From NCBI RefSeq assembly GCF_004010195.1, contig NC_057757.1:5816532-5879844 (forward strand): a stretch of DNA of 63,313 nucleotides. The letters run 5' to 3'. This DNA comes from Chiloscyllium plagiosum (taxonomy: Eukaryota). This document shows, piece by piece, positions 3,035-60,919 of the stretch. The notes below the pieces were generated by a model. It made no database searches and was not told where the DNA came from. It was given only the letters and a program-made list of their open reading frames with translations. A program made the position numbers and the translations under genes. The first letter of the stretch is position 1. The number at the start of each line of letters is the position of its first letter.

Positions 3035-3880
3035 TCAGACAAGAGGCTGGAAGAACACAGCATGCCAGGCAGCATCAGGAGGTGGAGAAGTCAGCGTTTC
3101 GGGTGTAACCCTTCTTCATGACTAGGGGCGGGTGTAGGGCGGGCTGCAGATAAAGGGGAAGGTGGGTACGGTGAAGACAGGTAGACTGTACAATCTAGTT
3201 GGTCAATGGGAAGAATGAATCCTGGCAGGGAGGAGAAGGAGCTGGAAAGGGGTTTGGGGATTGGAGAAGAAGGTGATTTGAAATTGGAGAACTCCATGTT
3301 GAGTCCTCTGGGCTGTAGGGTGCAAAGATGGAAGATAAGGTATTGTTCCTCCAAATAGGTGCTGTAGTTTGTTTTGGCAATGGAGGAGGCCAAGGGTGGT
3401 CGTGTCAGAAAGGGAGCAGTTGGGGGAATTAAAATGGTCAGCCCCTGCGGACCTGGCTGAGATGCTAGGTGAGCTGTTCCCTACGTTAACGTTCAGTGTC
3501 CCCCGATGTAGAGAAGGCCACATTGGGAGCACCCATTGCAGTAAGCTTGGTTGGAGGAGAGGCAGGTGAACCTCTGTCTCACCTGGAAGGACTGTCTGGG
3601 GCCTTGGATGGAGGTGACTGAAGTGGTGTACTGGCAGGTTTTGCATTTTTTTTTTCCCCCCCTTGCCTTGTGTTGGGAGGGGAGGGGTTTAGAATGGGGA
3701 AGGTGCGGCAGAGGGCTGTCTGGGTGACAGAGGGAGGAAAGGCATGTTGTTGATTTCATTTGGATCCCAGCATCTGCAGCTTTTTCCTCAGTTGACTTCT
3801 CCACCTGGTGATGCCTGGTGTGTTGTGTTCTTCCAGCCCTCTGCCTGTCTACTTTTGGATTTCAGCATCTGCAGTTCTGT
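3035..3880 (-). mobile_element. Truncated Penelope-like element (GIY-YIG remnant) with an inverted terminal copy
   Basis: Minus-strand frames give CKTCQY...FQVRQRFTC...CSQCGLLYIG and LEEQYLIFHL..LQPRGLNMEFSNFK; 3' end carries a decayed hammerhead motif (~3090-3122); ~3790-3880 is an inverted copy of that end. Confidence 0.75.
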
Positions 3881-4644
3881 CGTCATCAAAACCCTGCTCA
3901 AGCAGATTTGCAAAGTCTCAACCTTCTGAGAGAAAAGGATTCTCCTTGTTACTGTCCTTTAAAAGGCCACCCCTAATTTAAAAACAATGCCTCTTCGATC
4001 TGAACTCGTGCCCGAGAGGAAATATCCTTTCTTCATCCAACTTGTCAAGACCATTCACTATCTTCATATAAAAACCGAAAGAACTACAGGTGCTGTAAAT
4101 CCGAAACAAAAACTGAAGTTGCTGGAAAAGCTCAGCAGGTCTGGCAGCATCTGTGAAGCAATATCAAAGTTAACCTTTCAGGTTCAGTGACCCTTCATCA
4201 GAACTCCATACGTGCTGAGCTCTTCCAGGTCTTTATATGTTTGAGGACTGGGTTGCAAGAATTACTTTCCCCACACTTAAAGTTTCAACCACTGAAGATA
4301 AATGTTTTAATGTCACAAGAAAAACTAATTTGAAATGCTGCGAATGTGCCTTCAGCCAGATGTCATGCTGTGGTGCTGTTCCTGTAGCTATTAGGAACCA
4401 GAGATGGTCTTTTGCTCCTTCTAGCGTGTTCTGAGACTGTAGCTGATCTGCGACTTAGTGCTGTTTATACTTCTCTGTCTCATTTCTCTCAACATCCCAG
4501 GTTAACAGTCTATCAATCTGACATATAAAATTGAGTTGATTTAGCTGAAACAAGTTCCATACACTCTTTAAAATAAAAGCATGCATTCCTGGAATGTGGG
4601 TGTCATTGGTAAAGTTATCCCTAATTAACCTTGAGATGATTTGG

Positions 4645-6065
4645 AAATGCTGGTGTTGGACTGGGGTGTACAAAGTTTAAAAAATCACAACACCAGGCTA
4701 TAGTCCAACAGGTTTAATTGGCAGCACTAGCTCCTTCAGGTGGGTGTGGAGTATAAGATCATGAGACGCAGGATTTATAGCAAAGGTTGACAGTGTGATG
4801 TAACTGAAATTATATATTGAAAAAGCCTGGATTGTTTTAAGACTCATCTTTAAGACTTGAACATGTTTATTTCAGTTCGTTCATATGTAAATCGGAGAAA
4901 TTTTTAAAAGTTGCAATCTCAAGTGAACTTTAACAATTGGTGTCATGTCGGTCCAGATAATGTATTGAAGGTGTTAGCTCCCTGTGTGAGACTGTCTGTC
5001 TGTGCTACAATGGTCAGACTGATTCTAATCTAACAACCAGATTTACAGAAACTTACATGGATTCATGCAGTTTTTGAGCAAAATAAAATGGAATTCTGCA
5101 AGTACAAATTCACCCCACAAACGTGTGTGTGTGTGTGTCCATGTGGTTTTGTGTGTGCTCTAAGACATGGTACATTTGCGAGACTGAGCAGAGGCTACGA
5201 CATCAGATGAATGGACACCGCACAGAATCGACAGACAGGAGTGTTCCCTCCCAGTTGGAGAGCACTTCAGCGTTCCAGGACATTCAACCTCAGACCTTTG
5301 GGTGACCGTCCTTCAAGGCGAAGTTCGGGCAATTTGCATTGTTACCTGTTCTGTACAGATGCTGATAGCCAAGTTCGGTACCCATGGGGATGGCCTCAAC
5401 CGGGACCTTGGGTTCATATCCCACTACAGGTGACCCCACTGCACTACACATACACAGATGTGCACGTGCGCAAGCTCCCACACTCTCATGTACCTGCTCA
5501 CAGAATTATTACCCTTTAGACAAACGCGCGCACATTCTCACAGACACTCGTAACCCACCCACGTGTGTGCATGTGCATGCATACATATAAGTTTTTTTTT
5601 GTGAGGGGAATTTGTACTTGCAGAATTCCATTTTATTTTGCTCAAAAACTACATGAATCCAAGTAAGATTCTGTAAATCCATTTTTTAGATTAGAATCAG
5701 TCTGAACATTGTGGTACAGACAGTCTCTCACACAGGGCACCTCACACCTTCAATGCATTATCTGGGCCGACGTGACACTGTTAGCATTCACTTGAGAATG
5801 TAACTTTAAAAATGGTCTGCGATTTATATATGAAAGAACTGAAACCAACATGCTCATTCTAAAAGATGAGTGATTTTACAAATAATCCAGGTCTTTTTCA
5901 ATACATAATTTCACTTACGTTACACTGTAAACGTTTGCTATAAATTCTGTCTTATGATCTCATACTCCACAACCACCTGATGAAGGAGCAGTGCTCCGAA
6001 AGCTAATGCTTCCAAATAAACCTGTTGGATATCACCTAATGTTGTGAATTTTAACTTTGTACCCC
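4645..6065 (+). mobile_element. Penelope-like element: inverted pLTR (4645-5120), GIY-YIG C-terminal remnant (5165-5440) and pLTR (5590-6065)
   Basis: WYICETEQRLRHQMNGHR, LPVGEHFS and AKFGTHGDGLNRDLGF remnants; ~470-bp arms are diverged reverse complements; hammerhead motif at 5974-6008. Confidence 0.8.
5974..6008 (+). ncRNA. Minimal hammerhead ribozyme motif (PLE-type), stem I mismatched
   Basis: cac-CTGATGA-A-GGAGC-agt-GCTCC-GAAA-GCTA-atg. Confidence 0.65.
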
Positions 6066-6279
6066 TTGCGAAGCTGCTTTCTTGAATAGCTGCAATCCAT
6101 GTGGTGTAGGGATTCTTATCGTGCTATTAGGGAATGAATTCCAGGACTTTGAGCCAGAGACAGTGAGGAAAGAACAATACAGGATGGTGAGTGGCTTGAA
6201 GGAAGACTCCTACCATTCTGTGGGAGTTTTTCCAAATTTCACTCCTGGATGTAATTTGAGTCTGTGCTCACCATCGCCA

Positions 6280-6630
6280 AACCATTACCACCCAATGTCT
6301 GGAGGAAGAATGCCTCATCTTTCACCTTGGGACCCTGCAACCATACAGGGTCGATGTGGATTTCAACAGTTTCCTTATTTCCCCTCCCCCCACATTATCC
6401 CAGTCCCAAGCCTCCAACTCGACACTGCCCTCCTGACCTGTCTTTCTGCTCCACTCTCCTCTCTGACCTATCATCTTCTTCCCCCCCCCCCCACTTCACC
6501 CCTCTCCCATTTATCTCTCAGCAACCCACGGCCCAAAAACCTCATTCCTGATGAAGGGCCCGAAATGTCGATTCTCCTGTTGCTCGGATGCTGCCTGATC
6601 GGCTGTGCTTTTCCAGCACCAGACACTCAA
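6280..6630 (+). mobile_element. Penelope-like 3' fragment whose hammerhead motif has lost most of stem II
   Basis: EECLIFHLGTLQP remnant, then CCTGATGAAGGGCCCGAAATGTCGATT and the ctgcctga...cttttccagca tail. Confidence 0.65.
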
Positions 6631-7184
6631 TTCTGTAGTTTCTCCAGATTTTCTTCATTGCTTTGTGATGGCCTTAAATGCTTGAAAACTTTAATCAATG
6701 ACCCCTTCAACCACCTAAAGTATTGGAATGGCACCCCTAGTTTGTATAGTTATGCTCAGAATTTCCACCTTAGAGTCCAGGTGGTGCTGTTTGGAGAAGT
6801 CTCCACTACTTCAAGGCCAAAATATCCTTCAAATTGATTACAAGATGCACTGACCCAAGCTGAATCTCTACTGATGACCTTACTTGGCTGTTCAGTGGAA
6901 AAGATGGGTGTGCTTATCAAGTGAAGTGAAGACTGGATGCTCCCAGCTTTTGAATCACTGAATGCTTTCCTTTTTGAAAGGCTGGCTTCAAATTTACTTC
7001 ATCATTGCCCACGTTTCAATGGACAATCGGATTGGAGCAGTGTAAAACTGTTCTCTGTGGGGAATGCTAAATATAGTTTTTATTTCAAATTGAGGGCTGA
7101 TGTTTGATGGTACGGCGAAAGGTACGATGAGCCGGCGCTGACTTGGCCTCGTCCCTTTTTTAACTGTAACTTTGTTTGTTTCAG

Positions 7185-7223
7185 GATGCCAGGAAAGCAT
7201 GTGGGGACTCCACACTGACCCAG
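7185..7223 (+). CDS. GNB2: GNB2 coding exon 2 (DARKACGDSTLTQ)
   Basis: tttcAG acceptor, 39 nt, GTGAG donor; GDSTLTQ is the GNB2-type sequence (GNB1 has ADATLSQ). Confidence 0.95.
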
Positions 7224-7399
7224 GTGAGTGCTTTAACTGATCTGCGAGCAAAATGGACAGCTTTTCTTCCATCCTGGTCTGCCCTCAGTTTTTTTTTTGG
7301 GTTGATTTGAGATATCTATGCAACAAGATGTTGCAGCAAATTCGGGGGTTAATTGCACAGACCGCCGCAGTCCAGTCTAAATTCGTCAAGGCTGAGTTA

Positions 7400-7600
7400 T
7401 GATGTGGAGGAGCCGATTGGACTGGGGTGTACAAAGGATAAAAGCCACACGATGCCAGGTTATAGTCCCAACAGGTTTAATTGGAAGTACTAGCTTTCGG
7501 AGCGTCGCTCCTTCATCTGATTGGAGGTAGTTGTGATGAAAGCTAGTGCTTCTAAATAAATCTGTTGGACTATAACCTGGTGTTGTGTGGGTTTTAACTA
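7400..7600. repeat. Palindromic Penelope pLTR-end pair (hairpin)
   Basis: ccaggttatagtcc...ctagctttc followed by its reverse complement gaaagctag...ggactataacctgg. Confidence 0.7.
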
Positions 7601-8142
7601 AGGCTGAGGTAGTTAGACAAAAGAGCAGAGGGTATGGAGAGAAGGCAGGAACATGGAGTTGAGATGCCAAACTGAGCAACTGTGGTCCTATTCAATGGTG
7701 AAGCATCCTATTACTAGCAATGTGAGTTATAGGAGCAGAATTAGGCCATTCGACCCATTGAGTCTGCTCTGCTATTTGATTGTGTTTCTCAACCCATTCT
7801 CTTGCCTTCTGACTGTAACCCTTGTTTCCCTTGCTGATCTCTATCTCTATCTTATATACGCATTGACTTGGCCTCCCAGCCCATTGCGAATTCCACAGAT
7901 TCGCCACCCCCTGGCTGTAGAAATTCCTCCTCAAACCAGTTCTAAAGGGGTTGTCCCTACACTCGGAGGCTGTGCCTTCGGATCCTAGTCACTCCTACAA
8001 GTGGAAGCATCTTCGCCAAGTTCACTTTTTCCAGGAGTCTCTGTATTCTGTAAGTTTTCAATCAGATTCCGCCACCCCTTATCTTTCTAACTCTATTGAG
8101 TACAGAACCAGAGTCCTCAAGTGCTCTTCCTATGACAAGATT

Positions 8143-8345
8143 CGGAGATGCCGGTGTTGGACTGGGGTGTACAAAGTTAAAAATCGCACTACACCAGGTT
8201 GTAGTCCAACAGGTTTAATTGGAAGCACTAGCTTTCGGAGCGATGCTCCTTCATCAGGTGATTGTTGAAGGAGCGTCGCTCCGAAAGATGGTGCTTCCAA
8301 TTAAACCTGTTGGACTATAACCTGGTGTTGTGTGATTTTTAACTT
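8143..8345. repeat. Palindromic Penelope pLTR-end pair inserted in a minus-strand CR1 fragment (~7720-8450)
   Basis: 8175-8253 and 8266-8345 are near-perfect reverse complements; ttcctatgaca occurs on both flanks (~8127 and ~8345), TSD-like. Confidence 0.75.
8226..8260 (-). ncRNA. Intact minimal hammerhead ribozyme motif (PLE-type)
   Basis: Minus strand reads CAC-CTGATGA-A-GGAGC-atc-GCTCC-GAAA-GCTA-GTG: core intact, 5-bp stem II, palindromic AGCT stem III, CAC/GTG stem I. Confidence 0.75.
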
Positions 8346-10528
8346 CCTATGACACGGTCTTCATCCATGGGATCATTCTTGTAAATCTCCTCTGGACCCT
8401 CTCCAAGGCCAGTATATCATTTATTAGATACAGGACTCAAAACGGCCCACGTATGATCATGACTGGTCATATAGCTCAATTTCACTTTCATGTACTATTA
8501 TAGGAATAACTCTCCAGTCTAATGACAAGGTCTTGGTCTTGAATACATGCGACGCTGGGCAATATCCAACTCTCTGGAGAGAATTCCAAAGATTTTAAAC
8601 TCTGAAGGAGTTTCTTGCTCAACTCCTTCTTAAATTTTTAGCCGGGGTCGTAACCTGCTGTACCCCCGAGACTTTTGTTCGTCAACTCTATTGGAAACTT
8701 TGCCAATTAAAAATAATTTTTCACTCTTGATGGTATTGCTTCACAGGATCACATAAATAATGGTTGAAGCAATTGTTTTTGATCCTTGCTCCGGCTACCA
8801 ATTCCTTCATCCTTTTCCCTGGCACTTCAGACTAAACAGGCCTGTGTGGAACCCCAGTGTCATATTAGGCTTTAAGTTGAGCTAATGGCTGCATTTTGAC
8901 ACCAATGTTGAGATGACTTAAGTCAACCTCTGTTATGTTACCCCAGTTTTCCCATGCTTCTGCTCATCTGCTGAAACTTTCATCCGTACCTGCATAACTG
9001 CTGGATCTGATTGTTCTAACCGGTCTCCCACAATCTATCCTTCGTAAAACGTTGATGTAATTCGAGCGAGTGTTGCCTGCGTTTTAACCGACAGCAAGTC
9101 CCATTCCTCTGTCACCTGACCAGTTCCCACTCACCTACGTTGGCTCCTGGTCGAGCAGTGTCTTCGTTTTCAGGATTTCCTTCTTGTTTTCCAACCCTTC
9201 GCCCTTCCCTATCATTTTCAAGGGTCCCTGCCCACACCACCTTCCAAGATCTGTGCTTATATAATTCAAATCTAACTTGACCATCCATTGCCCTGCCTTC
9301 AGTGGCCACGCCTTCACTAGCTTGTCCATAATTTCTGGAATTCCAACCATGCACCACACAGGCTCTCTAACCTACTTTCCTCTTTGAAGGGCTCATGCCC
9401 GAAACGTCAATTCTCCTGCTCCTCGGATGCTGCCTGACCTGCTGTGCTTTTCCAGCACCGCACTCACTCTCAACACTAATCTCTTAGTGTTCTCCCCTGC
9501 CCTTTACATCACAAATCAATACATCATTGGAGTCAGAAAACAGTCCCGATCTGCTCCGTTTGTGAGAGCCCAAGCGAACTGTTTTAGTCCAGCTTCATTT
9601 GGTGCTAATGTCACTGAACTAGTGATCCTGAGGTGCACTCAGGAGCTCAGCAAAGCTCTTGGGATGCCTGTTCAAATCCCCAGAGTTTAAGTGAAGTTAA
9701 TAAATCTGGCAGGAAAGCTAGTCCCATCGATAGTGACCACGACAGTCACCATTGATTGTTATAACAAACTTACCTGGTTCACCCATGCTTTTGAGAAAGA
9801 AATCTCGTAACCTTACCCAGGCAGGCAATAGTTGCTGGCCATATGATATCCACATAGAGTCATACATGATATCCACATACATCATGGAAACACACCCTTC
9901 AGTCAAACTTGTCCACGCCGACCAGATATCTCGACCCAATCTAGTCCTATCTGCCAGCACCCGGCCCATATCCCTCCAAACCCCTTCCTATTCATATACC
10001 CATCCAAATGCTTTTTAAATGTTGCAATTGTACCAGCATGAAAGTACGCCCAACCCAGCATAGAGGAGGAATTAGACCCTGAATTTTTCTGTTCTCTACA
10101 ACATAATGAAATTTTTTATTACTCAACCATCAACGGGGTTGTATAGGCTGGTTTGTAACTCAGCTTTAATGCAGCCTTCTCACTGCAGGGCCCTTGCTAT
10201 TTTTCAATAACCTGCAGCATGGATTTATGTCCCCACTTTGTGTGATTTGTTGTGTGAATGTGTATTGGGAGAATTCTCTAGGGTTGAAAGGCAGGGAATA
10301 GCAACCCCTGTACATTTAATGTTCGTTGGTAACGATCTTGTGTTCAGGAGATTCCTCTTTTCATTAGAATCTGCTCCAAGTGCACACCTCTCTCAATAAT
10401 GGACGTATCCCTGATCTCCGGAATAGGAAAACCAGGCAGAGTTCTCCCTTTTTGATCTCAGTCGATCCGAACATGTATCGGAACAGGGTTAACCTCTATG
10501 CATTCAATACTGTGCTTGTCTCTTATAG

Positions 10529-10660
<132 letters not shown>

Positions 10661-10920
10661 TAGCATGTTTAATGCAGTGGAGATTGTGTATTGGGAAGGT
10701 GGTGGCTAGTGGTGTCACTGGATTAGCAATCCAGAGATCCTGGTTTATCTTCTGTAGATATGGATTCAAACTGTGGCAAATAGTGAAGTTTGAATTCAGT
10801 AAAAAGCTAGTTTAATGACGACTGCATAACCACTGTCAATTTGTTGCAAAAGCTCATCTAATTCAGTAATGTCCTTTTTTAGAGAAGGAAATCTGCTGTC
10901 TTTGTCTCGTTTTGCAAACA

Positions 10921-11218
10921 TACGGTGGCACAGTTACTCAGCAGTTAGCACTGCTGCCTCAGCGCCTGGGTCTAGGGTTTGATTCCAGCCTCGAGTGACT
11001 GTGTCTGTATGGTGTTCGCATGTTCTCCCTCTGTCTGTGTTGGTTTTCTTCGGGTGCACCAGTTTCTTCCCACAGTCCAAAGATGTGCAGGTTTGGTGGA
11101 TTGGCCGTGGCATATGTGTGATACAGGGAAAGGGTAGGGGGCTGGGACGATCTTTGGAAGGTTGGTGCAGATGCGATGGGTCGAATGGCCTCCTTTTGCG
11201 TGCTTGAGATTCTATGAT
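10921..11218 (+). mobile_element. HE1-type V-SINE inserted into an older tRNA-headed SINE (~10700-11335)
   Basis: tRNA-like head (tggcacag...gttagcactgctgcctca, ggtttgattcc), V-domain, CR1-like tail ending attctatgatt; the host SINE resumes at tgactccagac. Confidence 0.75.
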
Positions 11219-11584
11219 TGTGACTCCAGACACCCAGCAGTGTGGTTAACTCTTGACTGCCCTTGAGCAACTAGGGATGGACAATAAGTTCTGGCCCAGC
11301 CAGCAATATCGTCGTTCCCATGAATGAATTAACAAAAAAAAAAATCCAGAAGTGTCCTTAGCAGGTCTTTGGAGAGGATTTGACACTGAGCTTCACGGGA
11401 TTTTGAGAGTTGTGTTGAAAGCTTGGTGAAGGAGGTAGGTTTTGAGGAGAGAAGAGAAAGGCAACCAAAGAGGGAATTGCAAAACTTGGAGCTCAGGCTG
11501 CTGAAGGCAGGGCTGTCGATGATTGAATGATGAAGACTGGGAATGCTTTGGAGGGCACAAGTGGAGCAGTATCGAAATATTCGA

Positions 11585-11741
11585 GGAGAAAGTGAGGACT
11601 GCAGATGCTGGAGATCAGAGCTGAAAATGTGTTGCTGGAAAAGCGCAGCAGTGTCAGGCAGCATCCAGGGAACAGGGGAATCGACGTTTCGGGCATGAGC
11701 CTTTCTTCAGGAATCCTGAAGAAAGGGCTCATGCCCGAAAC
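11585..11741. mobile_element. Penelope pLTR-end palindrome with head-to-head hammerhead motifs, running into an N-gap
   Basis: gtttcgggcatgagcctttcttcagga-a-tcctgaagaaagggctcatgcccgaaac. Confidence 0.75.
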
Positions 11742-12269
11742 NNNNNNNNNNNNNNNNNNNNNNNNNNNNNNNNNNNNNNNNNNNNNNNNNNNNNNNNNNN
11801 NNNNNNNNNNNNNNNNNNNNNNNNNNNNNNNNNNNNNNNNNNNNNNNNNNNNNNNNNNNNNNNNNNNNNNNNNNNNNNNNNNNNNNNNNNNNNNNNNNNN
11901 NNNNNNNNNNNNNNNNNNNNNNNNNNNNNNNNNNNNNNNNNNNNNNNNNNNNNNNNNNNNNNNNNNNNNNNNNNNNNNNNNNNNNNNNNNNNNNNNNNNN
12001 NNNNNNNNNNNNNNNNNNNNNNNNNNNNNNNNNNNNNNNNNNNNNNNNNNNNNNNNNNNNNNNNNNNNNNNNNNNNNNNNNNNNNNNNNNNNNNNNNNNN
12101 NNNNNNNNNNNNNNNNNNNNNNNNNNNNNNNNNNNNNNNNNNNNNNNNNNNNNNNNNNNNNNNNNNNNNNNNNNNNNNNNNNNNNNNNNNNNNNNNNNNN
12201 NNNNNNNNNNNNNNNNNNNNNNNNNNNNNNNNNNNNNNNNNCAGCAGTGCTAACCACTGTGCCACCGTT

Positions 12270-12645
12270 GTGGGGTGACCTCCATAGCGGTTTACAAAAT
12301 CATGAGGGTGCAGATAAGGTGAATGGCAAGGGGCCTTTTCCTTAGCGTTGGGAAGTTCAAACTAGGGGGCATATTATTAAGGTGAAAGGAGAAAAATTTA
12401 ACAAGGACATGATGAGCAACTTTTCTACACAGTGGTTCATGCGTGGAATGAGTTTCCAGAGGAAGTCGTGTATGCAGGTACAGTTACAATGTTTAAAAGA
12501 CATTTGGATTAGTAGATAAATAGGAAAGGTTTGGTGGGATATGGGCTACGCACAGGGAAGTGGGACTAGCTTAGTTTAGGAGCACGGTTAGCATGGACTA
12601 GTTGCACTGAAGAGTCTGTTTCCATGCTATGTGACTCTATGACTA
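12270..12645 (+). mobile_element. CR1 LINE 3' fragment
   Basis: ggggtgacct...gtttacaaaatcatgagggt...ctgtttccatgctatgtgactctatgact tail. Confidence 0.75.
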
Positions 12646-12816
12646 GTGATTGCAATGTATGATGTGACTCTGAATTGGTTTGAGAGGTTCTGCGGATGTA
12701 AAAGGTGCTATATAAATGTAATCTGTCTTTGATCGTGATACTGCATGGTGTGATGGGGAGGCAGGAAGAAAGGGTTGAGGCTAGCTCTGTTTCAAAAATG
12801 TCTTCACTGCTCTTGA

Positions 12817-12921
<105 letters not shown>

Positions 12922-14005
12922 TGAAATGCTGCAAAAGCTTTCTCTTAATTATTCTGACAAAGGTATGTGAGCGTGTAGGTAGGAGAAACTGTTACCTCTT
13001 GTGAAAGGAGCCAAATTGAATGGGCATAAGTTTAAACTAATGTACAAAAGAAACCAGGATGATGTGAGGAAAGGTTTTCTCAAAACCTGGGGAGTTAGGA
13101 TCTGGAATGTGCTGCCTGGAAATGTGGAGGCAGGTTCAGTTGACGCATTCCAGAGGGTATTGAACGGTCATCTGGGTGAAAGTCATGTACAAGCCTCTGA
13201 GGGGAAAGGCAGGAGATTGGCACTAGGTGCTTGTTTAAAGAGCCAGTGTAGGCAAGATGAGCCATACGGCTGTCTTCCTTGATTCTAAAAGTCTCCTGTG
13301 CAATGCAGACAAACTTGCTGCACTTTTGTATCCGTTTCCGATGAACCAGACCAGATTTCTGACCTCTCTTTCGGTCGGTGTGGCTGCAGCAACAGAATTA
13401 GCTGGAATGCTTATGTGCGCCCTTCGGGATACTGAAGTGAAGGGTCTCTGTTGTCCTGAGCTGGTGTTGTTTCACAATGGGAACGCTTCTTAGGAAGTGC
13501 TTGGCTCACCAATCTTGCCCCACAATGGGATCTTTATCTCGGTTTTGTTTTGTTAGATCGCATGCTACAGTGTGATCTCTCTTGAATCATACGCAGTGTG
13601 CCTCACTTAGCCTCATTTTTAGACCTCCATTAGATTGTCACTCAAGTGAAGGGGATAATTGCACTGAAATAACTTGGGGTTTTCTGACAGGAAAGGGGAC
13701 AGACTACCAGCATATACATACCTGACAATTATTAGGGCTAGGCTTTCTTTTGAAATATTCTGGTGACATGCGCTACATCAGGGGTAGTGATGTAATGGCA
13801 TGGGGAAGCTAGAGGCCTTAAGGTGTGGTATCATGGGTTTAAATCCTACCGCCACAATGGGCTTTAAATTCAATTTGTAAAGCTAGTGATGTAGTTATGA
13901 GACTATATTGTCAATTCCTGTGAAAACCCATCTAGTTCACTAATGTACTTTTGGGATGTCATTGCCTGCTCTGGCCTACATGTGACTTCAAACCCACAGC
14001 AATGT

Positions 14006-14533
14006 ATGGCCACACTTGGTGTATTGTGTACAGTTCTGGTCACCGCAGTATAAGAAGGATGTGGAAGCTTTGGAAAGGGTGCAGAGGAGATTTACTAGGA
14101 TGTTGCCTGGTATGGAAGGAAGGTCTTACGAGGAAAGGCTGAGGGCCTTGAGGCTGTTCTTGTTAGAGAGAAGAAGGTTGAGAGGTGACTTAATAGAGAC
14201 ATATAAGATAATCAGAGGGTTAGATAGGATGGATAGGGAGAGCCTTTTTCCAAGTATGGGGACGGCAAACACGAGGGGACACAACTTTAAAGTGAGGGGA
14301 GACAGGTATAAGACAGATGTCAGAGGTAGTTTCTTTACTCAGAGTAGTAAGGGTATGGAATGCTTTGCCTTCAACGGTAGTAGATTCGCCAAGTTTAAGT
14401 GCATTTAAGTTGTCATTGGATAGGCATATGGACGTATATGGAATAGTGTAGGTGGGATGGGCTTCAGATGAGTATGACAGGGCGGTGCAACATCGAGGGC
14501 TGAAGGGCCTGTACTGCGCTGTAATGTTCTATG
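14006..14533 (+). mobile_element. CR1 LINE 3' fragment inserted in a tRNA-headed SINE (13780-14640)
   Basis: ORF 14016..14408 YCVQFWSPQYKKDVEALERVQRRFTRMLPG...RRLRGDLIETYKI is the CR1 ORF2 C-terminus; gttctatgtt tail. Confidence 0.85.
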
Positions 14534-16751
14534 TTGTTGACTCTTAACTGTCCTATAAAATGGCTGAGCAAGCCACTCAGTTCAGGGACAATTAGAGATG
14601 GGTAAGAAATGTTGGTCTTGCCAGTGATGCCCACCTTTTGTAAGTGAAATATATATACAAATAGAATGTGGCTTTAAAACCAGATGAGAATCTGGGGAGA
14701 GCTTTACCAAGCTGCAGCACTGCTAACTTCTGTGTCTTGTGTAGGACAGGCACACAAGATTCCCAAGCAGTTTGCATCTTTTTTTGTTTGCTGTCCTGCA
14801 GCCCTCACTCCCAATCTGTATCCAACAACATACTGCATGATACTGAAGTTAGTGTTTTAGCAAGGGATACCAATTGGATTTAAGAAACAGCATTAAATGC
14901 TATTTGTTATTTCAGATCTTGAGTATTGCTGGAAAAAAGGCACATTTTTGTCAAAGCTTTATGATTTATAATGTTTTAATGATTTATGAGAAAAATATTT
15001 GAGAGGATAATATTTTATACTGTTCAAGAAGAAAGCATTGATTGACAAGTGAGCTTCGGTTCAAATGTTGCTGTGGAGAATGTACCAGTTAGGTGCTGAC
15101 TGATCGTTAACTACCAAAGTTTCCTTTAAATTTAAACCAGGTTGATTCTGATTGGTCAAGACATTCTCTAAGGAGACTGCACTTGCTAACTACCCCCTTC
15201 CTGTACAGTATGAAGTGTTGGTTCCCTTTATGTTGGTGATGTATGTCCTGATGAGGGCAAGGTAAAGAGCTTCAACAAAATGCAGCTTTCTTCAGCAATA
15301 TCAGCAGGAAATTGACAAGTGGACCGAGTTTATCTTTTTCCAAACCCAGCAATGGTTGGAAGAGGTGAGGTGGGGAAGTATGTTGATCCCATGGGATAAT
15401 GGAGAAAGGTATAGCAGGATATCATGTTGGGGTGCGATACAGTAGGGGATGGGAGCAGACTGGTGTGTATAATAAATGCTGACATAGACCCATTGGCCTA
15501 GTGGCCCTTGCTTTGTGATGTGTGTTCTATGTTTTGAAGACTTGCGAGTAGAAAAAAAGCATCAAAACCATAGTTGCAGAGTTGCATTGTCTGGAGTAAG
15601 GACTGTATCAGTAGATGGGATGTGGGGGCATTGAGGTATGTCAGTGGTCTTGTCAAAACAGGAACTCCGGTCTAATGTTCTGGCACGTGTTCGAATCCTC
15701 CCTATGGCAGATAGAAAAAAAAATGTAAATGCTCTTTAGGGAAGGAAATCTGTTCATCTTTACCTGGTCAGGCCTACAGGTGACTTCAGACCCACAGCAG
15801 TACGGTTGACTCAGATTTGTCTCTGGGCAGTTAGGGATGGACAATAAATGTTTGTGCATCCAGTGATACCCACATCCCCGTGAATGACCCAAAGCACCAA
15901 TGCATTTCATCATGCAATGCCAAACAGTGTCTGCCCCCTCACATTTCCATGTGGGACACCAAGAGCTGTGATTGTCAAAGCAGTAAAATGCTATTTCCCC
16001 CTTCCTTCTCGCTCTTGCATCTAATGCCCTGTAAATGCCTTCTGGAGCAGCTCATTCCTCCCTCTTGGGCTTGCAGGGGATTTTGGGAATTGACTGTCAC
16101 TTATTTGTAATGTTCAGTGAAAAGGAGCATGTACAGGAGGAGTGCCTTAATCATAAAATCGTAGAATCCCTACATAGTGGAAGCAGACTGTTCGGCCCAT
16201 TAAGTTGGAGGAAACCCACACAAACACAGGAAGAATGTGCAAACTCCACACATGGTCACCCAAGGGTGGAATTGAATCTGGGGCTGAGAGGTTCATCCTT
16301 GCCTTCTCATGCACAATGCAATCTATTTTGATGACTTGTAAATCAAGAATCAAAACATGGGGGCACAGTCTTGGGATAAGGGGATGAACTTTTTAAGACT
16401 GAGATGTGAAGTTGGCTCACTTGGAGGGTTGTGAATACTTTGGAATTCTCTTCCCCCACCAAGAATTGCGAATGCTTCATTGTTGAAGTTGAGCTCTTAA
16501 TTTCAGATGAGTGGTGGCTCCAATCTTTTGGTATCCTTGTGTTTCCAGCCCAGTCTGCGTTGAGAATATCCATCCTTCCATGAAGGCACTTGGTCATTAT
16601 AAGAGTGTCGGTGATGAGTATTGGTGGGTTGTTTATCCGGAGTGGATATCACATCAGAAACCAAATAAATCTTGCTTTCTTTTTTCAACATTCACATGCT
16701 CAGTCCTGCTGAATGTTGGTACTGTAATTGGCTGAATGATGTAAATTGTAG

Positions 16752-17078
<327 letters not shown>

Positions 17079-17699
17079 TAAAAGCTGTAACTTGTTCAAC
17101 AGTGGCACTCCATTGTGGTCACTGCAGCATCAAGGGGGGGGACCGTTCAGACTTGGGAGGCAACTCTAGGGATTAGAAATAGGGCTGACCTCAAACGTAG
17201 GTTACAGGAGGCACACTCTAATTGATCTTTTGAGGAACAACAGCAATTTCCACTTGACATAGTGACGTCAGCGTAGCAACTTTGGGGAATTTCCCAGAGC
17301 TGGAATGGGGACGGAGCCATCATGAGCAGAAATATGGTCAGCAGCGTTAGTCAGAAAAGAAACTGACAGGGGTTAGGAAGGGGCCATACAGGACTGCATG
17401 ACAACCAATCACACTGGGGAGGTGGCTGTTCTGAAATTGTAGTACAGGATAGTAGAGGAGAGGTAGTGGTATAATGGTAATAGTTATAACCTAGAGGTCT
17501 AGGCTGCATCAGTGGGGGTATCAGTTCAAATCTCACACAGCAGCTGGTGGAATTTAGATTCACTTCATAAAACTTCGATTTGAAAGCTAGCCCTGGTGGC
17601 CCTGACTGTTTGTTTGTTTTTTAAAATAAAGTCAACATGTAAGCAAGGTCAGAACGCTGCAGTTCTTACTGTGTGTGACTTCAGATCTTGACCCTTTCA

Positions 17700-18128
17700 C
17701 AGAATCCCTACACCGACCGTCCAGAGTATCCCACCCAGCCCCATTCCCCTATTACTTTACATTTCTCTGACTAATGCATCTAACCTACACATCCCTGAGC
17801 ACTATGGGCAATTTAGTATGGCCAGTTCACCTGACCTGCACACCTTTGGATTGTGGGAGGAAACCCACGCAGACGCTAAATTGAATTCTGTCTGCTACCA
17901 GCTTGCCCCATTGCTAGCCACCTGCAGCCTTTTCCACTGGTCAGTTCAACTTGCTGTTTAGTAAATCTTTGATTATTTCTATTGCCATCCAACCTTCTTT
18001 CTTCCTAAGTTCTGATGTTTTAAATGTTCTGATGAAACTCCACACAGACGGTTGCCCGAGGCTGGAATCGAACCCAGGTCCTTGGCGTTGTGAGGCAGTA
18101 GTGCTAACCACTGAACCGCCGTGCTGCC
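17700..18128 (-). mobile_element. HE1-type V-SINE interrupted by a 160-bp copy of nearby intronic DNA
   Basis: SINE head at ~18035-18128, V-domain and tail at 17700-17874; 17875-18034 is foreign sequence. Confidence 0.8.
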
Positions 18129-18479
18129 CTGACCTCCCTCTGAAATGGCAGAGCAAACTACTGGGGTAATTGCGGATGGACAACAATGCTTACCTAGCCA
18201 GTATTGCGCATGTCCCGTTAAAGAAAAAAAATGGACCTCCATAAAAAGCAGCCAGAAGGACATTGGGTTGAATTCTTTGGGGCCATTTGGAATTTCTTGA
18301 CGCAGAAGATGAGCGAGATTGTTAGGAGAGCTGACGATGGGCCATTTAACAAACTATTCCCTGCAGGTGGTTAGTTTGTATTCTGGTGTAATGAGACCTC
18401 CCCGGCAGCAGGTGGTAGTGTGAGAGTGAGCAGCTGGGACGGTCGAATGGACTAGTGCTGACAGGAAGGATGCCTTTAG

Positions 18480-18945
18480 AGAGAGACAGTCCAGAGAAGG
18501 TTCACCAGCCTGACACTGGGTATGGAAAGACCTTCAGTCTTATGAGGAGAGGTTGAGTAGATTGTTCTAAATTCGAATGAGTATAGGCCCAAACAAGGGG
18601 TGACCTTATTGAAACGTATAAGATTTTTAGGGGACTTGACAGGGGCGATGCAGATTGTTTTTGCCCTTGTGGAAGAGCTGAAGACCAGAGGGCATAATTT
18701 GAGTAAGGTATCACTCATTTAAGAGAGAGATGAGGAGGAATATCTTCTGAGGGTGATGAATTTGTGGAGTTCTTCACTGTAGAGGGTTGTTGAGGCGGAG
18801 TGGTGGTTAAGCATAATCAAGGCTGAGAGAGATTTTTAATCGGTAAGGGAATCCAGGGTTATAGGAAAGGGGAATTGAGGAGTATCAGATCAGCTATGAT
18901 CTCATTGAATTGTTAGCTGACTTGATGGGCTGAATGGCCTATTGT
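18480..18945 (+). mobile_element. CR1 LINE 3' fragment (older subfamily)
   Basis: VQRRFTSL and GDLIETYKIFRGLD remnants; gatcagctatgatctcattgaat...ggctgaatggcct tail. Confidence 0.7.
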
Positions 18946-19534
18946 ATCGGTGGAGGGTTTTAAGTTTACTAGCAATTTTCTGACGATTTGATTTTCACCT
19001 TTCCACAAGAGAGAACACACATTCAGCATAACTTTGCTTTTGTACTTTATGACCTCCAGATATAAAATCAGATCCCAATGTCCATTTATTATTTGTCAAG
19101 AGATACTAAATGGAACTTAATTGATCTAGATATTTGATCCATTTTAATGGTGCTATTCACCTCTACTGCCACATTTTAATGCCTGTACATTAAAAAAGAA
19201 AGCTCTGCTCCTGTATTCAGATGTTTCACATGTGGGCTAAATTGAATTCTGTCTGCTACCAGCTTGCCCCATTGCTAGCCACCTGCAGCCTTTTCCACTG
19301 GTCAGTTCAACTTGCTGTTTAGTAAATCTTTGATTATTTCTATTGCCATCCAACCTTCTTTCTTCCCAAGTTCTGATGTTTTAAATGTTCTGATGTACAT
19401 AAATTTAAGTCCTACCCAACAGAACATTGCTTGTCATCACAGGTACATCCTGTCAAATTGCTTCCAGCCCCCTCTGCCTGCTGTGGTTTAGCCCTGTGGT
19501 GTCATTATGAAAGTAGGGTGTTAGTTATCTAATA

Positions 19535-19860
19535 GATTAGATTCCCTACAGTATGGAGACAGGCCCTTCGACCCAACAAGTCCACACCAACCCTCCAAAG
19601 AGTAACCCACTCAGACCCATTCCCCTACCCTAGATTTACTCCTGACGAATGCACCTAACACTAAAGGCAATTTAGCATGACCAGTTCACCTGACCTGCAC
19701 ATCTTTGGATAGTGGGAGGAAACTGGAGCAGCCAGAGGAAACCCACGCAGACACTGGGAGAATGTGCAAACTTCACACGGATAGTCGCCCGAGACAGGAA
19801 TTGAACCTGGGTCCCTAGCGCTGTGAGGCAGCAGTGCTAACCACCAAACCACCGTGCCGC
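19535..19860 (-). mobile_element. HE1-type V-SINE
   Basis: Full-length reverse complement: ggcggcacggtgg...gttagcactgctgcctcacagcgc to aatctaatct tail. Confidence 0.85.
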
Positions 19861-21200: not shown

Positions 21201-21292
21201 ACCCCCTGTAAGGTTTGTCCTAACTAGCAGCTACCTCCTTCCATGAATGGTGGTGAGGAACTGTTTGACCCTCCTGCTCACCTCGGGAGTAA

Positions 21293-21400
<108 letters not shown>

Positions 21401-24738: not shown

Positions 24739-25029
<291 letters not shown>

Positions 25030-28400: not shown

Positions 28401-28538
<138 letters not shown>

Positions 28539-49749: not shown

Positions 49750-52590
49750 ATACACAGGTGGAGTATTGTGTGTGCATTTTGGAATCCACATTCTGGTAGG
49801 GATGTGATTGCACTAGAGAGTGTGCAGATGAGATTTACCAGGATGTTGAGATTAGAGTGGTGCTGGAAAAGCACTGCAGGCCAGGCAGCATCCGAGGAGC
49901 AGGAAAATCCTCATTCCTGATGAAGGACTTTTGCCCAAAACGTCGATTTTTTTCCTGCTCCTCTGATGCTGCCTGACCTGCTGTGCTTTTCCAGCACCAC
50001 TCTGGTCTTGACTCTCATCTCCAGCGTCTGCAGTCTCACTTTCACCTTTACCAGGATGTTGCCCAGTCTGTCTGGAGAGTTTCAAGATGAAGAGATGTTG
50101 GACAGCCTGGGGTTGGTTTCCTTGGAACAGAGGAGATTGAGACGGGTCAGCTGTGTCCAGTTCGGGTCACCTGGTTACAGGAAGCTGGAGAGGGTTCAGA
50201 AGAGTTTTACCAGAATCTTGCCAGGTATACAAGGTTTGAGTTATAAATAAAGGCTGGATAAGCTCCTACAGGACCGTAGGAGTTGGAGAATTGACCTTGT
50301 AGAAGTTTATAAAATAATGAGGGGTATAGATAGATTTAATGGTAGTTGTCTTTTTCCTACGATGAGGGATTTCAGGACTCGGGGACACATTTTTAAGGTG
50401 AGAAGAGAGAGATTTGAAAAATACATGAGCGGTAAATCTTTTACACTGTGTGTGGAATGAAGTGGTGGATGCGGGAACATGTGCAATGTTTTATAAACAT
50501 TTGGATCAGTACGAGAATAAGAAAAATTTAGAGGTATAGGGACCAGGTGCAGGCAGGTGGGAATAGTTTAGTTGGGAATATGGTCGGCATGGACTCGAAC
50601 TGAAGGGTGTGTTTCCATGCTATATGACTCTGACTATGACATGATTGAGATGTATAGGTAGACATATTGGAAAGGTTTAGAGGGATGGGGATCAAATACA
50701 GGCAATTGGGACTAGTTAAGTTTGGGATACCTAGTTGTCATGGGCTGAGTTGGACCAAAGAGTCTGTATGACTCTACGAGGGGCATAGACAGGAAGCAGC
50801 GTTTCCCCTTGATGGAAGGATCGATGACCAGGGGAATCGATATAAAGTAAGGGCTAGGAAGTTTAGAGGAGATGTGCAGAACAAAGCTTTCATCCAGGGG
50901 GGTGGATGTATCTGGAACTCATTGCCTGTCAGGGTGGTAGAGGCAGAAATCCACATGATGTTAAAGAAGCCGGTATGCTTTTTTCCTTTTTTTTCTTTCA
51001 TGGGAGCTGGGTGTTGCTGACAAGGCGTTTCCAAACCCTTAGCTGGACTTTGAACTGAGTGGCTTGTTCAGCAATTTTAGAAGGCGATTGAGTTCACCAG
51101 TCACACAAAACACTGAGTTGCAATGTTGTGAAAACTTTTAAGGATGTTGTTAGACTTGAGAGGGTTCGTTAAAGATTTGGAAGGATGTTGCCTGGATGAG
51201 AGTGTTTGAGCTATAGCGAGAAGCTGGATAGGTCAGTTTTTTTTCCCCTGGACTGTTGAAAGCAGACCTGATAGAGGTTTATAAATTCATGAGGGGTGTG
51301 GATAGGGTCTTATTTCTTGGGTGGGGGGGAGTTTTAAACTAGAGGGACAAGATTCAGAAAGGACTTGAGGGGTTTAATGTTTTCGCGCAGAGGGTGGTGT
51401 GTGTATGGAATGATCTGCCAGAGGAAATGGTGGAGGTGGGGGACAATAACAAGGTCATGGACAGCAATCCTGCATCACGCCGCCAAGAACTGAGGCAGTC
51501 ACGTGGAGTCTGCGTGGGTTTCCTCTGGGTGCCCCAGTTTCCTCCCACAGTCTAAAGACGTGCAGGTTAGGTTGACTGGCCGTGTTAAATTACCCCATAG
51601 TGTCCAGGGATGTGTAGGCCAGGTGGATTAGCCATGGGAAATGCAGGGTTACAGGGATGGGGTGGATTTGATGGGCTGAATGGCCTACTTCCACACTGTA
51701 CGGATTCTAATCTATGAAATTTAAAAGGTATCTGGATGGGTAAATGAATAAGAAGGATTCGGATGGCTATGGGCCAAATGCTGGTATATGAGAGTAAGCC
51801 AGATTGGGATGACTGGTCGGTGCGGACAATTTGGACTAAAGGATTTGTCTCCGTGCTCTTTGCCACTATAATTATTTAGATGTGCACTTGCAATGCCAAG
51901 ATTATGGGCCGAGTAAGGATGTTGCCGGAGCTGGAGGGTTTGAGCTGTAGGCAGAGGCTGGGGCTGTTTTCCCTGGAGCGTTGGAAGCTGAGGGGCGACC
52001 TTTCTAAAGTTTTTTAAAATAATCAGGGACTTGGAAAGGGTAGATAGCCAAGGTCTTTTTTTCCCCCAGGCTACGGAAGTCCAAAACGAGAGGACACAGG
52101 TTTAAGAGCGGAAAGATATAAAAGGGATCAAAGAGGCAACAGTTTCATGTGGAGTGGATGGAATGAGCTGCCAGAAAAAGTGGTGCAGGCTGCTCCAATT
52201 ACAGCATTTAAAAGGCGTCTGGATGGGTATAGAGTCATAAAGCCGTACAGCATGGAAACAGTCCTTTCGGTCCAACCCGTCCAGATATCCCAACCCAATC
52301 TAGTCCCACCTGCCAGCACCCGGCCCATATCCCTCCAAACCCTTCCTATTCATACACCCATCCAAATGCCTCTTAAATGCTGTAATTGTACCAGCCTCCA
52401 CCACTTCCTCTGGCAGCTCATTCCACACACGTACCACCCTCTGCGTGTCTATTTTATATCTTACCCCTCTCACCCTAAACCTATGAGGAAGGGTTTGGAG
52501 GGATGTGGGCCAAGTGGGACCAGACTGGGTCGGGATATCTGGTCGGCACGGACGGGTCGGGCCGAAGGGTCTGTTTCCGTGCTGTAGGCC
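49750..52590 (+). mobile_element. Dense cluster of CR1 3' fragments with Penelope-end (49850-50045) and HE1 (51500-51715) insertions
   Basis: Repeated ERVQ..FTR.LPG and RRLRGDL remnants with CR1 tails; an antisense CR1 tail at 52230-52480. Confidence 0.7.
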
Positions 52591-56420: not shown

Positions 56421-56519
56421 AAAGGTACAAAGCGTATTCTTCCACTTGCCTTGTGGCCAATATTAAATCGCTCACTCGATCGCTGTCACAGACTACTTGA
56501 CCGCTGTCGTACTGCTGTT

Positions 56520-56702
56520 TACGAAGTTAAAAATCACACAACAGCAGGTTATAGTCCGACAGGTTTGATCGGAAGCACACTAGCTTTCAGAACGCTGCTC
56601 CTTCATCAAGTGGTTGTGAGCAGCGCTCCGAAAGCTAGTGCTTCCAATCAAACCTGTTGGACTATAACCTGGTGTTGTGTGATTCTTAACTTCGTACACC
56701 CC
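56520..56702. repeat. Palindromic Penelope pLTR-end pair
   Basis: gaagttaaaaatcacacaac...ctagctttc and gaaagctag...gttgtgtgattcttaacttc. Confidence 0.75.
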
Positions 56703-58416
56703 AAAATCATGACTACCATCAGCAGTTTGTGAAAGTGTGCTGTGTTCAAATTGGGCGGCATGTTTCTCATGGTACAACAATGATTATAACAAATCTGCTC
56801 CCCTTCAATCTTTAATGCAAACAATCAAGAAGCGCTAAGTTAAAATGCAGAATTCTTTATTATTTCAAAGAAAAGAGTTTCCCTGTCACCTCTACAAAAT
56901 GATTTTTTTTTTAAAATACAATACCTAAACTGTGGGGCCTCCAAAGCTGGTGAGAACGATTCTATTTCTCACTATGTACCCAAGACCATAACATGTAGAA
57001 GTAAAAGTAGGCCATTCAGCCCATCGAGTCTGCACCACCATTCAATAGCTGATCTGGCCATCCTCAACTCCACTTTCCTGCCTTTGCTCCATAATCCTGG
57101 AATCCCTGACTGGTTTAAAAACCTGTCCGTCTCAGCCTTGACTTTGAGCCGCTGGATTCAGCTAAGCGCGCAATTCAAAAAGACCCTCTCGTCAGTTGTT
57201 GAAAGTCTGGATTCAGGATGCCCACCAGCAGCCCAGACCACAATACACGTCTTGAGCCCAGATTTCCTTTTATTTTTCGATGCCCATTCAGGTACAGACA
57301 TCCTGCTAAACCCGAGGATTTCTAGGAATCAGGAGGTTCTGCCCAACCAGCTACAATGAGTGCTTCTCTCCTGCAGGGAAGAAGAGTCAAAGGTTTCTCC
57401 TTGGTTTCGCCTTGTTGGTGTCAGATTGTGAACTCTTCAGGATTTCCCTGTATCCTCCAGGAATCGAAGATCCTGCACACCTGTTATGTCCAGTTCTTTT
57501 GAAAAATCACAGTTATATTAAAGTGTATTTTTAAAAAAATATTTTCTTTGGACATTGCTTTTTTGTCTTATTGAAAACGAGGGGTCAAAAAAGGCTTTTT
57601 TTTAAACTCTCCATAAAGCATTGTCCAAGTGGGACTTTGCTTTCCTGTCGGTCTGGAAAGGCAATGAATGACGAAGTGGCAATGATTGACTGAAGGACAG
57701 GATAAAAGCTCCAAGAGGGCAACCCTACTTTGGTCTCTTCCACTTTGCACACACCTCATTAAGTTCCTACTTCAACACCTTCCCGAGCAGCAGCCCACCA
57801 CCCACCATTCCCAAGCTTGTTAGCAATCCTGCTGCTCTAGTCCGAACCCACAGCAAGACTCCATCACCTCCTTGCTCTCTGACCTGGATTACTTCCATTC
57901 TGGCAACACTTTGATTTTAAATTCTCGTCCAGTTTCCAAATCCCCAACTACGCCAACCCCCACGCCTACCATCTATGTCTCTGTACCCTCCAATCGCCAT
58001 AACTTTCCATGTCCTGTGCACGGCGGCCCCCCCACCCCCCGACTACCAATGCCATCCTTCCAGCCCCTCAAGAATGTCCCAAATTCTATGCATTCCTGTT
58101 GCAGCAATACTTTCAGCTGTTTGTGGCCCTGGGTTCCAGAATTCCCTCCCTAGCCACCAAGCTGAAGGTCTACATGGATCCAGGACTCTAGCATTGTAAC
58201 CAATTTGTGTGGGTGGAAAAGCAGAGCTTTGGGTCCATGCTCAGTGCCTCCGTGGTGGGCACTTGCAACTTAGCTTCAGAATGTAGTACATTCTAGTCCC
58301 TCTCCAGAGGCCGGAAGACAAAAATCCGAGGTGCCATTTGCAGTGCAGTTGGAGATAACTGCTGCTGAAAGTGGGCACCACTTGATCAGGGCAAACCTGA
58401 GCCTCTCTCTCTTCCT

Positions 58417-58550
58417 ATTCCGGATGAAGGGCTTTTGCCCGAAACGTCGATTTTCCTGCTCCTCGGATGCTGCCTGACCTGCTGTGCTTTCCCAGCACCG
58501 CTCTGATCTAAACTCTAGTTTCCAGCGTCTGCAAGTCCTCACATTTGCCT
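58417..58550 (+). mobile_element. Penelope pLTR end with a hammerhead motif (core mutated to CGGATGA)
   Basis: attc-CGGATGA-A-GGGC-tttt-GCCC-GAAA-CGTC-gatt followed by the family tail. Confidence 0.7.
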
Positions 58551-59335: not shown

Positions 59336-59811
59336 GGAGACATTTCTTTGCAGCAAGGAGAGTGAAGAATCTGGAACTCTTGCCCCACACCCCTTACAAA
59401 AAGCTTGTGAAGCTGGGCAGGGGAGCAGGAGCTGGCACTTTCAAGACTGAGGTTGGTATATATTTCTTCAACAAAGAATGCGGAATCTGTTCTAGAAGGT
59501 AACAGTTCTGGAATCTGCATTAAACCACCCAATCTGATGATACCACACAGTCCTGGAGTGGCGGGGGATATAAAGTAAAGCATCTTAGGACGTTGAGGAA
59601 TGCAGACTTACAGTCACTGATCTCCTCATAACCTTGGTCACAGTGTTATCTTGCAGCTGATTGCTATCGTGCAACAAAACCGTACCCTGTTTAACAGTCT
59701 CTTCTTGCTTCGACTCAGTTGTGATTTTTCTTGCTACCACTATAAACTAAATAGGCTCTTAAACCTGACAGTTTGAGAGAATCAGTCTAGCCAAACTAAA
59801 ATAGCGTAAGA

Positions 59812-59905
59812 GACAGAGTAAGAGAGAGTGTGTGTGTGCGCATGTGCGTGTGAGAGAGAGTGAAAGCGTGTGAGAGAGAGAGAGTGAGTGAGAGACAGAC
59901 AGACA
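59812..59905. repeat. Compound (GA)n/(GT)n microsatellite
   Basis: agagagagtgtgtgtgtgcgcatgtgcgtgtgagagagag... Confidence 0.85.
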
Positions 59906-60549
59906 GTAAGAGAAGATGCACCCATAAAATTGCTTTCTATTAAGTTCTATGAGGGTTGAATGGGGCCATGTGTTCTGTTCCTCAATTACAGCACTCACAT
60001 CTCCAGCTTGGAGAGAGACTTAGGGAACACTCATTTCACCGTTGAATAGGTGCTCGCTTGTGTCGGAGTTGCTGGTGTTCAAACAGATCTATGGAAAAGT
60101 CAACTGAGTTCACTGACGTGAAAGCTAAACTTTGTTTGTACCAGCCCCAGCATCCCCCTTCACACTCTCAACACCCCACCCCCTCAAAAACCTTCTCCTT
60201 CTCGCATTCCATTCCGAGCTAATTGCACAATTTCCGTCTTTCTTTTTTAAAAGTAAGGAAGCCTGCACTTCTATATCGCCTATCACAACATCTTGCAGAC
60301 AAGGCAGCATTATTTTCAAATGCAGTCACGGATTTGGGTTACAAATGCAGCAGCCAATTTACACAACAAGATCCCAAGCAGCAAAGAGAAAATAAAACCC
60401 ATCTGTTTTAGTGATCACGATCTCGGGACAAATATAGGAACCAGCTGCCTAGTCCAGCCCTTCCTTGAAATAGAAGCTGTCAGATCTTTAATATCTTCTA
60501 CAGGAGGAAGACAGTTGCTCTGTTCTAAGATTTGATTTGAAAGACAACA

Positions 60550-60919
60550 CTTCAAAAAAAAAACCCTTGCTCAATTCAATCAATCGTATGTCAATTCAAA
60601 TTAATCCCCCTGCCCTACTCTCTCTCCACGGCCTTGTGTCAATCTAAACGAATTCACTGTCTTGCCCTGTTGTCACGGTCCAATATCAATTCAAACTAAG
60701 GGTCCCTCGACCCGAAACTTTAACTCGGATTTCTCTTCAAAAAAAAAACCCTTGCTCAATTCAATCAATCGTATGTCAATTCAAATTAATCCCCCTGCCC
60801 TACTCTCTCTCCACGGCCTTGTGTCAATCTAAACAAATTCACTGTCTTGCCCTGTTGTCACGGTCCAATATCAATTCAAACTAAGGGTGCCTCGACCCGA
60901 AACTTTAACTCGGATTTCT
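60550..60919 (+). repeat. 185-bp direct tandem duplication
   Basis: 60550-60734 and 60735-60919 differ at about 2 positions. Confidence 0.9.

Follow-up and report, generated by a model that had tools for sequence, protein, structure and literature searches.

The window analysed here, a stretch of 63,313 nt of the 3.56 Gb genome of the shark Chiloscyllium plagiosum (NC_057757.1:5,816,532-5,879,844), carries a G-protein beta subunit gene, part of a PLOD3-like gene and a large number of fragments of Penelope-like elements (PLEs) with hammerhead ribozyme motifs (Table 1). The preliminary description of this stretch named 13 sites at which a hammerhead core was said to recur. We found the sequence of the respective families at all 13, at approximately the positions given, but a strict descriptor (CUGANGA, a stem II of at least 4 bp and GAAA-NN-UH) was matched at three only: 5977-6005(+), 8229-8257(-) and 37714-37741(-). 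The same descriptor gave no match in 100 Markov-1 simulations of the window. As the first stem I pair is broken at 5977(+), two of the 13 sites, 8229(-) and 37714(-), are fully paired.

The core is changed at sites 7490, 56578, 58417 and 3090 and stem II is damaged at 11678, 49915, 6548 and 4170, while site 11716 is interrupted by an assembly gap and site 60700 is without its CUGANGA half. Variants with a GGGT/ACCC or GGGTC/GACCC stem II had been placed at 3090, 4170 and 60700; the family sequence is there in each case, but in a damaged ribozyme at the first two sites and in half a ribozyme at the third. Many of the named sites are the centres of long inverted repeats. A scan of the window against Rfam (E up to 5) returned no hammerhead family, only chance matches of microRNA-type hairpins on these fold-backs.

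We grouped copies into families by their tails alone and took majority sequences (families 2a, 2b, 2c, 3, 4 and 5); family 1 was derived separately. The majorities keep the CUGANGA and GAAA-NN-UH core, and the proposed covariation between families was confirmed, with pairing kept in both stems I and II. Stem I reads AUUC/GAAU in family 2b, AUUC/GAUU with one U-U in 2a and 2c, AGUU/AACU in family 3, AGUC/GACU in family 4, AGCU/AGCU in family 5 and CAC/GUG in family 1. For stem II we found the types GGGC/GCCC, GGGUC/GACCC, GGGU/ACCC, GGGUC/GACUC and GGAGC/GCUCC. Helix III is a loopless palindrome, AGCU or ACGU, as described earlier, and the families have an extra base after A9 and a G10.1-C11.1 pair.

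These features are those of the minimal hammerheads of metazoan PLEs (Cervera and De la Pena, 2014, PMC4209133), which are likewise of type I with an extra base between A9 and G10.1, a G10.1-C11.1 pair, a short helix I and a palindromic loopless helix III, occur as several families per genome and are mostly single dispersed motifs or opposite-strand pairs. The arrangement has been described in Neptune, Poseidon and Xena elements of fish (PMC4209133); sharks are not shown in the first half of the main text of that paper. The motifs are almost certainly PLE minimal type-I hammerheads lying in pseudo-long terminal repeats (pLTRs).

Family 5, a fifth pLTR family seen outside the window (loci L326-L337), has 1,472 exact copies in the genome, against none for the reversed-pattern control. 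Among the first 100 copies listed, 97 have U3 together with A8, three have a single mismatch and none has C3-G8. Positions 3 and 8 pair in the active hammerhead fold, so the U3-A8 swap points to selection for catalysis in the master elements; together with the covariation of stems I and II, it suggests that the ribozyme has been under selection in these masters. A U3-A8 variant is also known from Schistosoma (PMC4209133). The dispersed copies are not protected, since CpG positions decay at 20-26%, including the CpG that holds the catalytic G12. A lower mismatch rate in the core than in the tail (family 2: 2.8% vs. 6.6%) was rejected as a sign of selection on dispersed copies, as it is biased by the core-dependent alignment and by subfamily differences, and the corresponding figure for family 1 was not used because its tail is spoiled by an indel.

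The proposed association of the ribozymes with PLE ends holds for both main families, in which they lie directly behind open reading frames (ORFs) coding for a reverse transcriptase (RT) and a GIY-YIG endonuclease. For family 1 the layout is best seen at locus L115, which has a pLTR with ribozyme, the tail, an ATG, the RT-GIY-YIG ORF (interrupted by a short interspersed element and a gap) and a second pLTR with ribozyme; the tail stops just before the start codon. At L115 and at L119 the single, pLTR-flanked ORF codes for an RT with a DKG motif and, C-terminally, a GIY-YIG domain with CCHH. The family 2 ribozyme lies behind RT-GIY-YIG ORFs (3′ part only; Pfam RVT_1, GIY-YIG) in several of 20 fetched loci, none of which holds an uninterrupted full-length copy. 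Long open frames of 600-1,100 amino acids were also considered as carriers and rejected, as no long PLE ORF was found once they were fetched and several family 2 frames crossed N gaps.

Both families have a CX4CxxC linker before the endonuclease, and a CX2-5CxxC linker is a mark of Neptune and Nematis elements (PMC8557442). Their RT parts are 32% and their endonuclease parts 28% identical, so families 1 and 2 are independent lineages, in line with the several families proposed before. By these characters we assign the carriers to the Neptune type, in at least two lineages that are unrelated to each other. The tail motif of family 2 recurs in families 3, 4 and 5. Stubs of one family are found inserted in pLTRs of the other (L257:4677-4873 and L115:1620-1800), and a GIY-YIG remnant without the linker zinc finger (L015:1652-2035) is likely from a third, Poseidon-type PLE lineage.

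The copy number is as high as had been suspected. Exact patterns matched 81,617 times for family 2 and 16,290 times for family 1 genome-wide, and reversed-pattern controls did not match at all. The 97,907 matches to these two patterns compare with about 4,000 motifs in the coelacanth and 9,000 in Xenopus (PMC4209133). In a random sample of 110 stretches, placed at round coordinates chosen arbitrarily and holding 1,051,993 non-N bases, we counted 181 family 2, 66 family 1 and 67 family 3 type tails. This is a density of about 300 tails per Mb, or by extrapolation roughly a million arms in the genome. The ribozyme is intact in 36 of the 314 sampled tails (14 of these lie within fold-backs), and most dispersed copies are dead stubs. 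Their 3′ ends have two preferred positions, near +55-65 and +91-101, in line with the optional 30-40 bp tail of PLEs. Inverted junctions are common (84/154 and 37/63 arms), and target duplications are present.

To locate the other end, we took unselected copies, mapped where they begin on long natural copies and counted positions from the predicted cleavage site (0); copies adjacent to a gap or to the end of a locus were dropped. For family 2 (n = 221), 33 ends lie beyond -60, 9 at -60 to -39, 89 at -38 to -28, 51 at -27 to -6, 17 at -5 to +5 and 22 beyond +5; for family 1 (n = 117) the same bins hold 27, 6, 41, 23, 5 and 15. Both families thus have their peak just before the ribozyme and none at the cut. 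Among copies of at least 94% identity the edge bin exceeds the cut bin by 25 to 6 in family 2 and by 11 to 2 in family 1. Of 71 simple edge copies, 64 have an upstream flank without a match among the other flanks. Most simple edge stubs have a length of about 90 or 130 nt, which fits the two 3′ ends. In the tail-defined families, conservation drops right before stem I. In RNA run X19, coverage steps up at the edge base, where opposite-strand joints and 65 loose ends, mixed in sequence, are also seen; run X20 contributed no reads.

It has been proposed that ribozyme cleavage defines the copied RNA (PMC4209133), in which case the cut would mark the start of insertions. Family 2 does include a minority of copies that begin at or after the cut (the last two bins above), and the class of long copies (33/221) could stem from religated circles. 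Ends exactly at the cut number only 2 of 221 in family 2 and none of 117 in family 1, however, no pile-up of molecule ends was reported in run X19, and catalytic mutants of the anole element still insert in vitro (PMC11167929). Cut-defined 5′ ends are therefore already disfavoured for the bulk of the copies, and we regard this explanation as highly improbable. An estimated 80-88% of family 2 copies keep sequence upstream of the predicted cut (about 26 of 154 in the random set begin at or after it, and fewer in the flanks), which means that they were copied from uncut or religated RNA. We conclude that the ends stop just before the ribozyme rather than at the predicted cut, and that most copies likely derive from RNA that the ribozyme had not cut. 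A 3′ splice site at stem I was rejected as the cause of the boundary, since stubs retain the AG and families 1 and 2 do not have one.

The stubs could also be self-propagating non-autonomous elements or retrozymes that have masters of their own and are spread as ribozyme-made circles. Their extrapolated number and their target duplications would suit such elements, and non-LTR retrozymes, which like the copies here are non-coding, carry a type I hammerhead and derive from PLEs, have been reported, including in one chondrichthyan (bioRxiv 10.64898/2026.07.22.740005). Those retrozymes are tandem units with a ribozyme each, whereas the copies here are single or head-to-head, and we found no tandem array of intact ribozyme units within the window. 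Moreover, every major loop variant of family 2 is found on long pLTR copies too, the positions of junctions and the centres of fold-backs differ from one copy to the next, and the ends do not match the cut site. This makes an origin as retrozymes improbable, if somewhat less so than cut-defined ends.

The sequence around the edge would fit a core promoter. The peak of 5′ ends falls on an A that follows a pyrimidine, with a TATA-like box about 30-32 nt before it. In 43 of the 52 long copies of family 2 this motif begins 36-37 nt before C3; in family 1 the distance to C3 is 38 or 40 nt in 48 of the 58 long copies. The copies are related and not independent. An AT-rich box about 30 nt before the edge A is present in 4/4 long copies of family 3, 2/4 of family 4 and at least 3/4 of family 5. 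In a test for a cap-derived extra G, which was mixed overall, the counts for family 2 were 15,481 for G and 9,366 for A genome-wide, and 7/18 vs. 4/34 (p = 0.03) among its simple copies. We consider it probable that transcription begins at the 5′ edge of the ribozyme and that the stubs arise by run-off from the tail to this edge.

Alternatively, the RNA may extend further 5′, with the RT stopping or jumping once it has unwound the ribozyme (owing to a protein-bound fold, fold-back of the complementary DNA or microhomology at ATT-like sites), so that the boundary would be structural. In families 2-5 the boundary does coincide with stem I, 15 of the 26 family 2 junctions that are defined show microhomology, ATT is preferred by the anole enzyme (PMC11167929) and there is no clear cap G. 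Such a block would be met first at the 3′ side of the fold, though, and stem I has only 3-5 bp; the edge sequence varies between families (ATT, AGT, AGC, ACA), and in family 1 one peak precedes stem I by 5-6 nt, which is the distance expected from TATAAAT. A structural stop is unlikely in our view, yet it is the main alternative and clearly less remote than the two explanations above. With a start site and with a structural stop alike, most copies come from uncut or religated RNA.

Several observations weigh against a transcription start at the edge, beginning with the microhomology just mentioned. The start is placed by motif spacing and none was observed directly. The box is non-canonical (TTTAT) in families 2 and 4, and two of the four long family 4 copies are without it. 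Evidence for an extra G derived from a cap is mixed and we do not accept it: about half of the family 2 G loci are fold-backs, which inflates the G count, the 26 family 2 junctions with a defined target duplication include a single extra G twice and an extra A twice, and family 5 (G 22, C 32, A 46 of 100 listed copies) has no excess of G. Family 1 has two 5′-end peaks, at about -37 and -32. Restricted to the youngest simple insertions, the comparison of edge and cut is 8 vs. 4 (p = 0.39) in family 2 and 2 vs. 0 in family 1, numbers that are too small. Run X19 confirms the junction from other material, but for the most part its reads reflect genomic junctions that are transcribed. Finally, the active dimer was not obtained when dimers were cofolded to minimum energy, which is in line with low activity; minimal hammerheads are known to cleave weakly as dimers.

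With transcription starting at the edge, the following sequence of events can be proposed. The upstream pLTR would hold a core promoter of the TATA/initiator type that sets +1 at stem I or a few bases before it. The element protein would nick the target and begin copying inside the RNA at the tail, as it does in vitro for anole Poseidon, and reverse transcription over about 90-135 nt to the 5′ end of the RNA would produce stubs from the uncut transcript, with copying on both strands giving head-to-head pairs. The ribozyme would cleave slowly about 30 nt from the transcript 5′ end, as a dimer through helix III or helped by protein, and its cut would not define the ends of most insertions.

Related systems share parts of this scheme. 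For Poseidon of Anolis carolinensis (Frangieh et al., 2024, PMC11167929), it has been described that copying starts internally at the tail, that both strands are extended, that uncut RNA is the main template and that protein assists cleavage, and there too the tail provides two 3′ end positions and the ribozyme lies just upstream. Poseidon belongs to a different clade and its ORF begins inside the ribozyme, unlike that of family 1, which begins about 120 nt downstream; the part of that paper considered here holds no start site or genomic 5′-end mapping. Penelope pLTRs of Adineta vaga (Arkhipova et al., 2013, PMC3846280) resemble the copies here in having an inverted truncated pLTR, a tail and target duplications, and they have a putative TATA plus initiator. 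In Penelope of D. virilis (Schostak et al., 2008, PMC2377424) the promoter also lies inside the pLTR but is TATA-less, and an intron ends at helix I.

Eight of the 13 named sites lie in introns of the G-protein beta gene. The preliminary description had them inside GNB2 introns; the location stands, while the gene is established at the level of G-beta, and the name GNB2 is our presumption from paralogue residues and the PLOD3-like neighbour. One could suppose from this clustering that the intronic copies are domesticated ribozymes regulating the gene. The density of tails in the window is ordinary compared with the genome, though, no named site is intact in the sense strand of the gene, and the intact copy at 8229 is antisense and part of a long hairpin, making this the least likely of all explanations considered. 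The intron location carries no evidence of function and the link to the gene is incidental. The PLOD3-like gene lies in part in the window on the minus strand (exon 54141-54425), with upstream exons beyond it. Later GT-domain exons were matched on C101102, a contig that is unplaced, and hence the assembly at this gene may not be complete.

Table 1. Features of the window (positions in nt from its first base).
Feature	Position	Strand	Details
G-protein beta subunit gene	1573..28540	+	end of exons approximate; introns hold 8 of the 13 named sites
Old family 4 3′ end	3046..3700	-	endonuclease remnant, pLTR, damaged hammerhead, stem II GGGT/ACCC
Family 3 stub	4070..4203	-	GGGTC/GACCC type, decayed
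Long family 1 inverted insertion	4632..6065	.	GIY-YIG remnant 5188-5433(+); pLTR with TATAAAT box; hammerhead 5977-6005(+), first stem I pair broken
Old family 2 3′ end	6271..6621	+	endonuclease remnant; stem II loop deleted
Family 1 fold-back stub	7417..7599	-	damaged core; 9-bp target duplication
Family 1 fold-back insertion	8135..8345	-	intact hammerhead 8257-8229 on long arm 8271-8135(-); short arm 8263-8345(+); target duplication of 12 bp at 8126 and 8343
Fully paired family 1 minimal hammerhead	8229..8257	-	C3 to A17; antisense to G-beta gene
Family 2 stub	9385..9484	+	truncated inside ribozyme; similar pieces at 27850, 39112, 39931, 49177, 52843
Family 2 fold-back stub	11580..11741	.	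interrupted by assembly gap; minus arm begins 32 nt before cut
Family 2 stub	37656..37745	-	begins 32 nt before predicted cut, exactly at A of stem I; hammerhead 37741-37714(-) intact, its stem I with the majority U-U
Family 2 fold-back stub	49845..50042	+	damaged ribozyme; 15-bp target duplication
Family 1 fold-back stub	56501..56703	-	damaged core; 5′ end 38 nt before cut; between PLOD3-like exons
Family 2 stub	58415..58550	+	damaged core; 10-bp target duplication
Family 3 half-ribozyme and tail	60550..60976	+	within 185-bp tandem duplication; no CUGANGA core

The tandem duplication at 60550-60924, whose 185-bp units are 98% identical, copies part of a family 3 stub. Assembly gap edges at 11742, 27888 and 39477 fall inside fold-back stubs, as would be expected if such hairpins break short-read assembly. 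The window also holds a remnant of a LINE-type RT, 41698-42318(-), and is full of repeats that we take to be CR1-like and SINE-like.

Minimal hammerheads in PLEs have been known since 2014 (PMC4209133). What is new here is the 5′-end boundary at the ribozyme edge, insertion 5′ ends not being mapped in the part of that paper cited here. Our literature searches, with supplements and a 2017 paper on dimer cleavage outside their scope, returned no earlier report of this boundary or of PLE hammerheads in sharks. For the role of the ribozyme in PLEs, cleavage and circularisation have been proposed, while cleavage is unnecessary for insertion in vitro. Taken as a whole, we offer the following picture tentatively, with somewhat less confidence than the start site itself: the hammerhead could be the first thing transcribed in several independent Neptune lineages, its stem I overlapping an initiator about 30 nt behind a TATA box, with solo hammerheads as complete run-off copies of the uncut 5′ leader and removal of a capped leader as the task of the ribozyme. 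The sharp boundary predicts a single-base start site, the roughly one million tails form a fossil record in which the role of the ribozyme can be tested, and the U3-A8 family provides a natural compensatory control. If the picture is true, the hundreds of thousands of solo hammerheads would be complete copies rather than random truncations, and the ribozyme would not size the inserted RNA but remove a capped leader of about 30 nt, acting as a switch in translation or ribonucleoprotein maturation.

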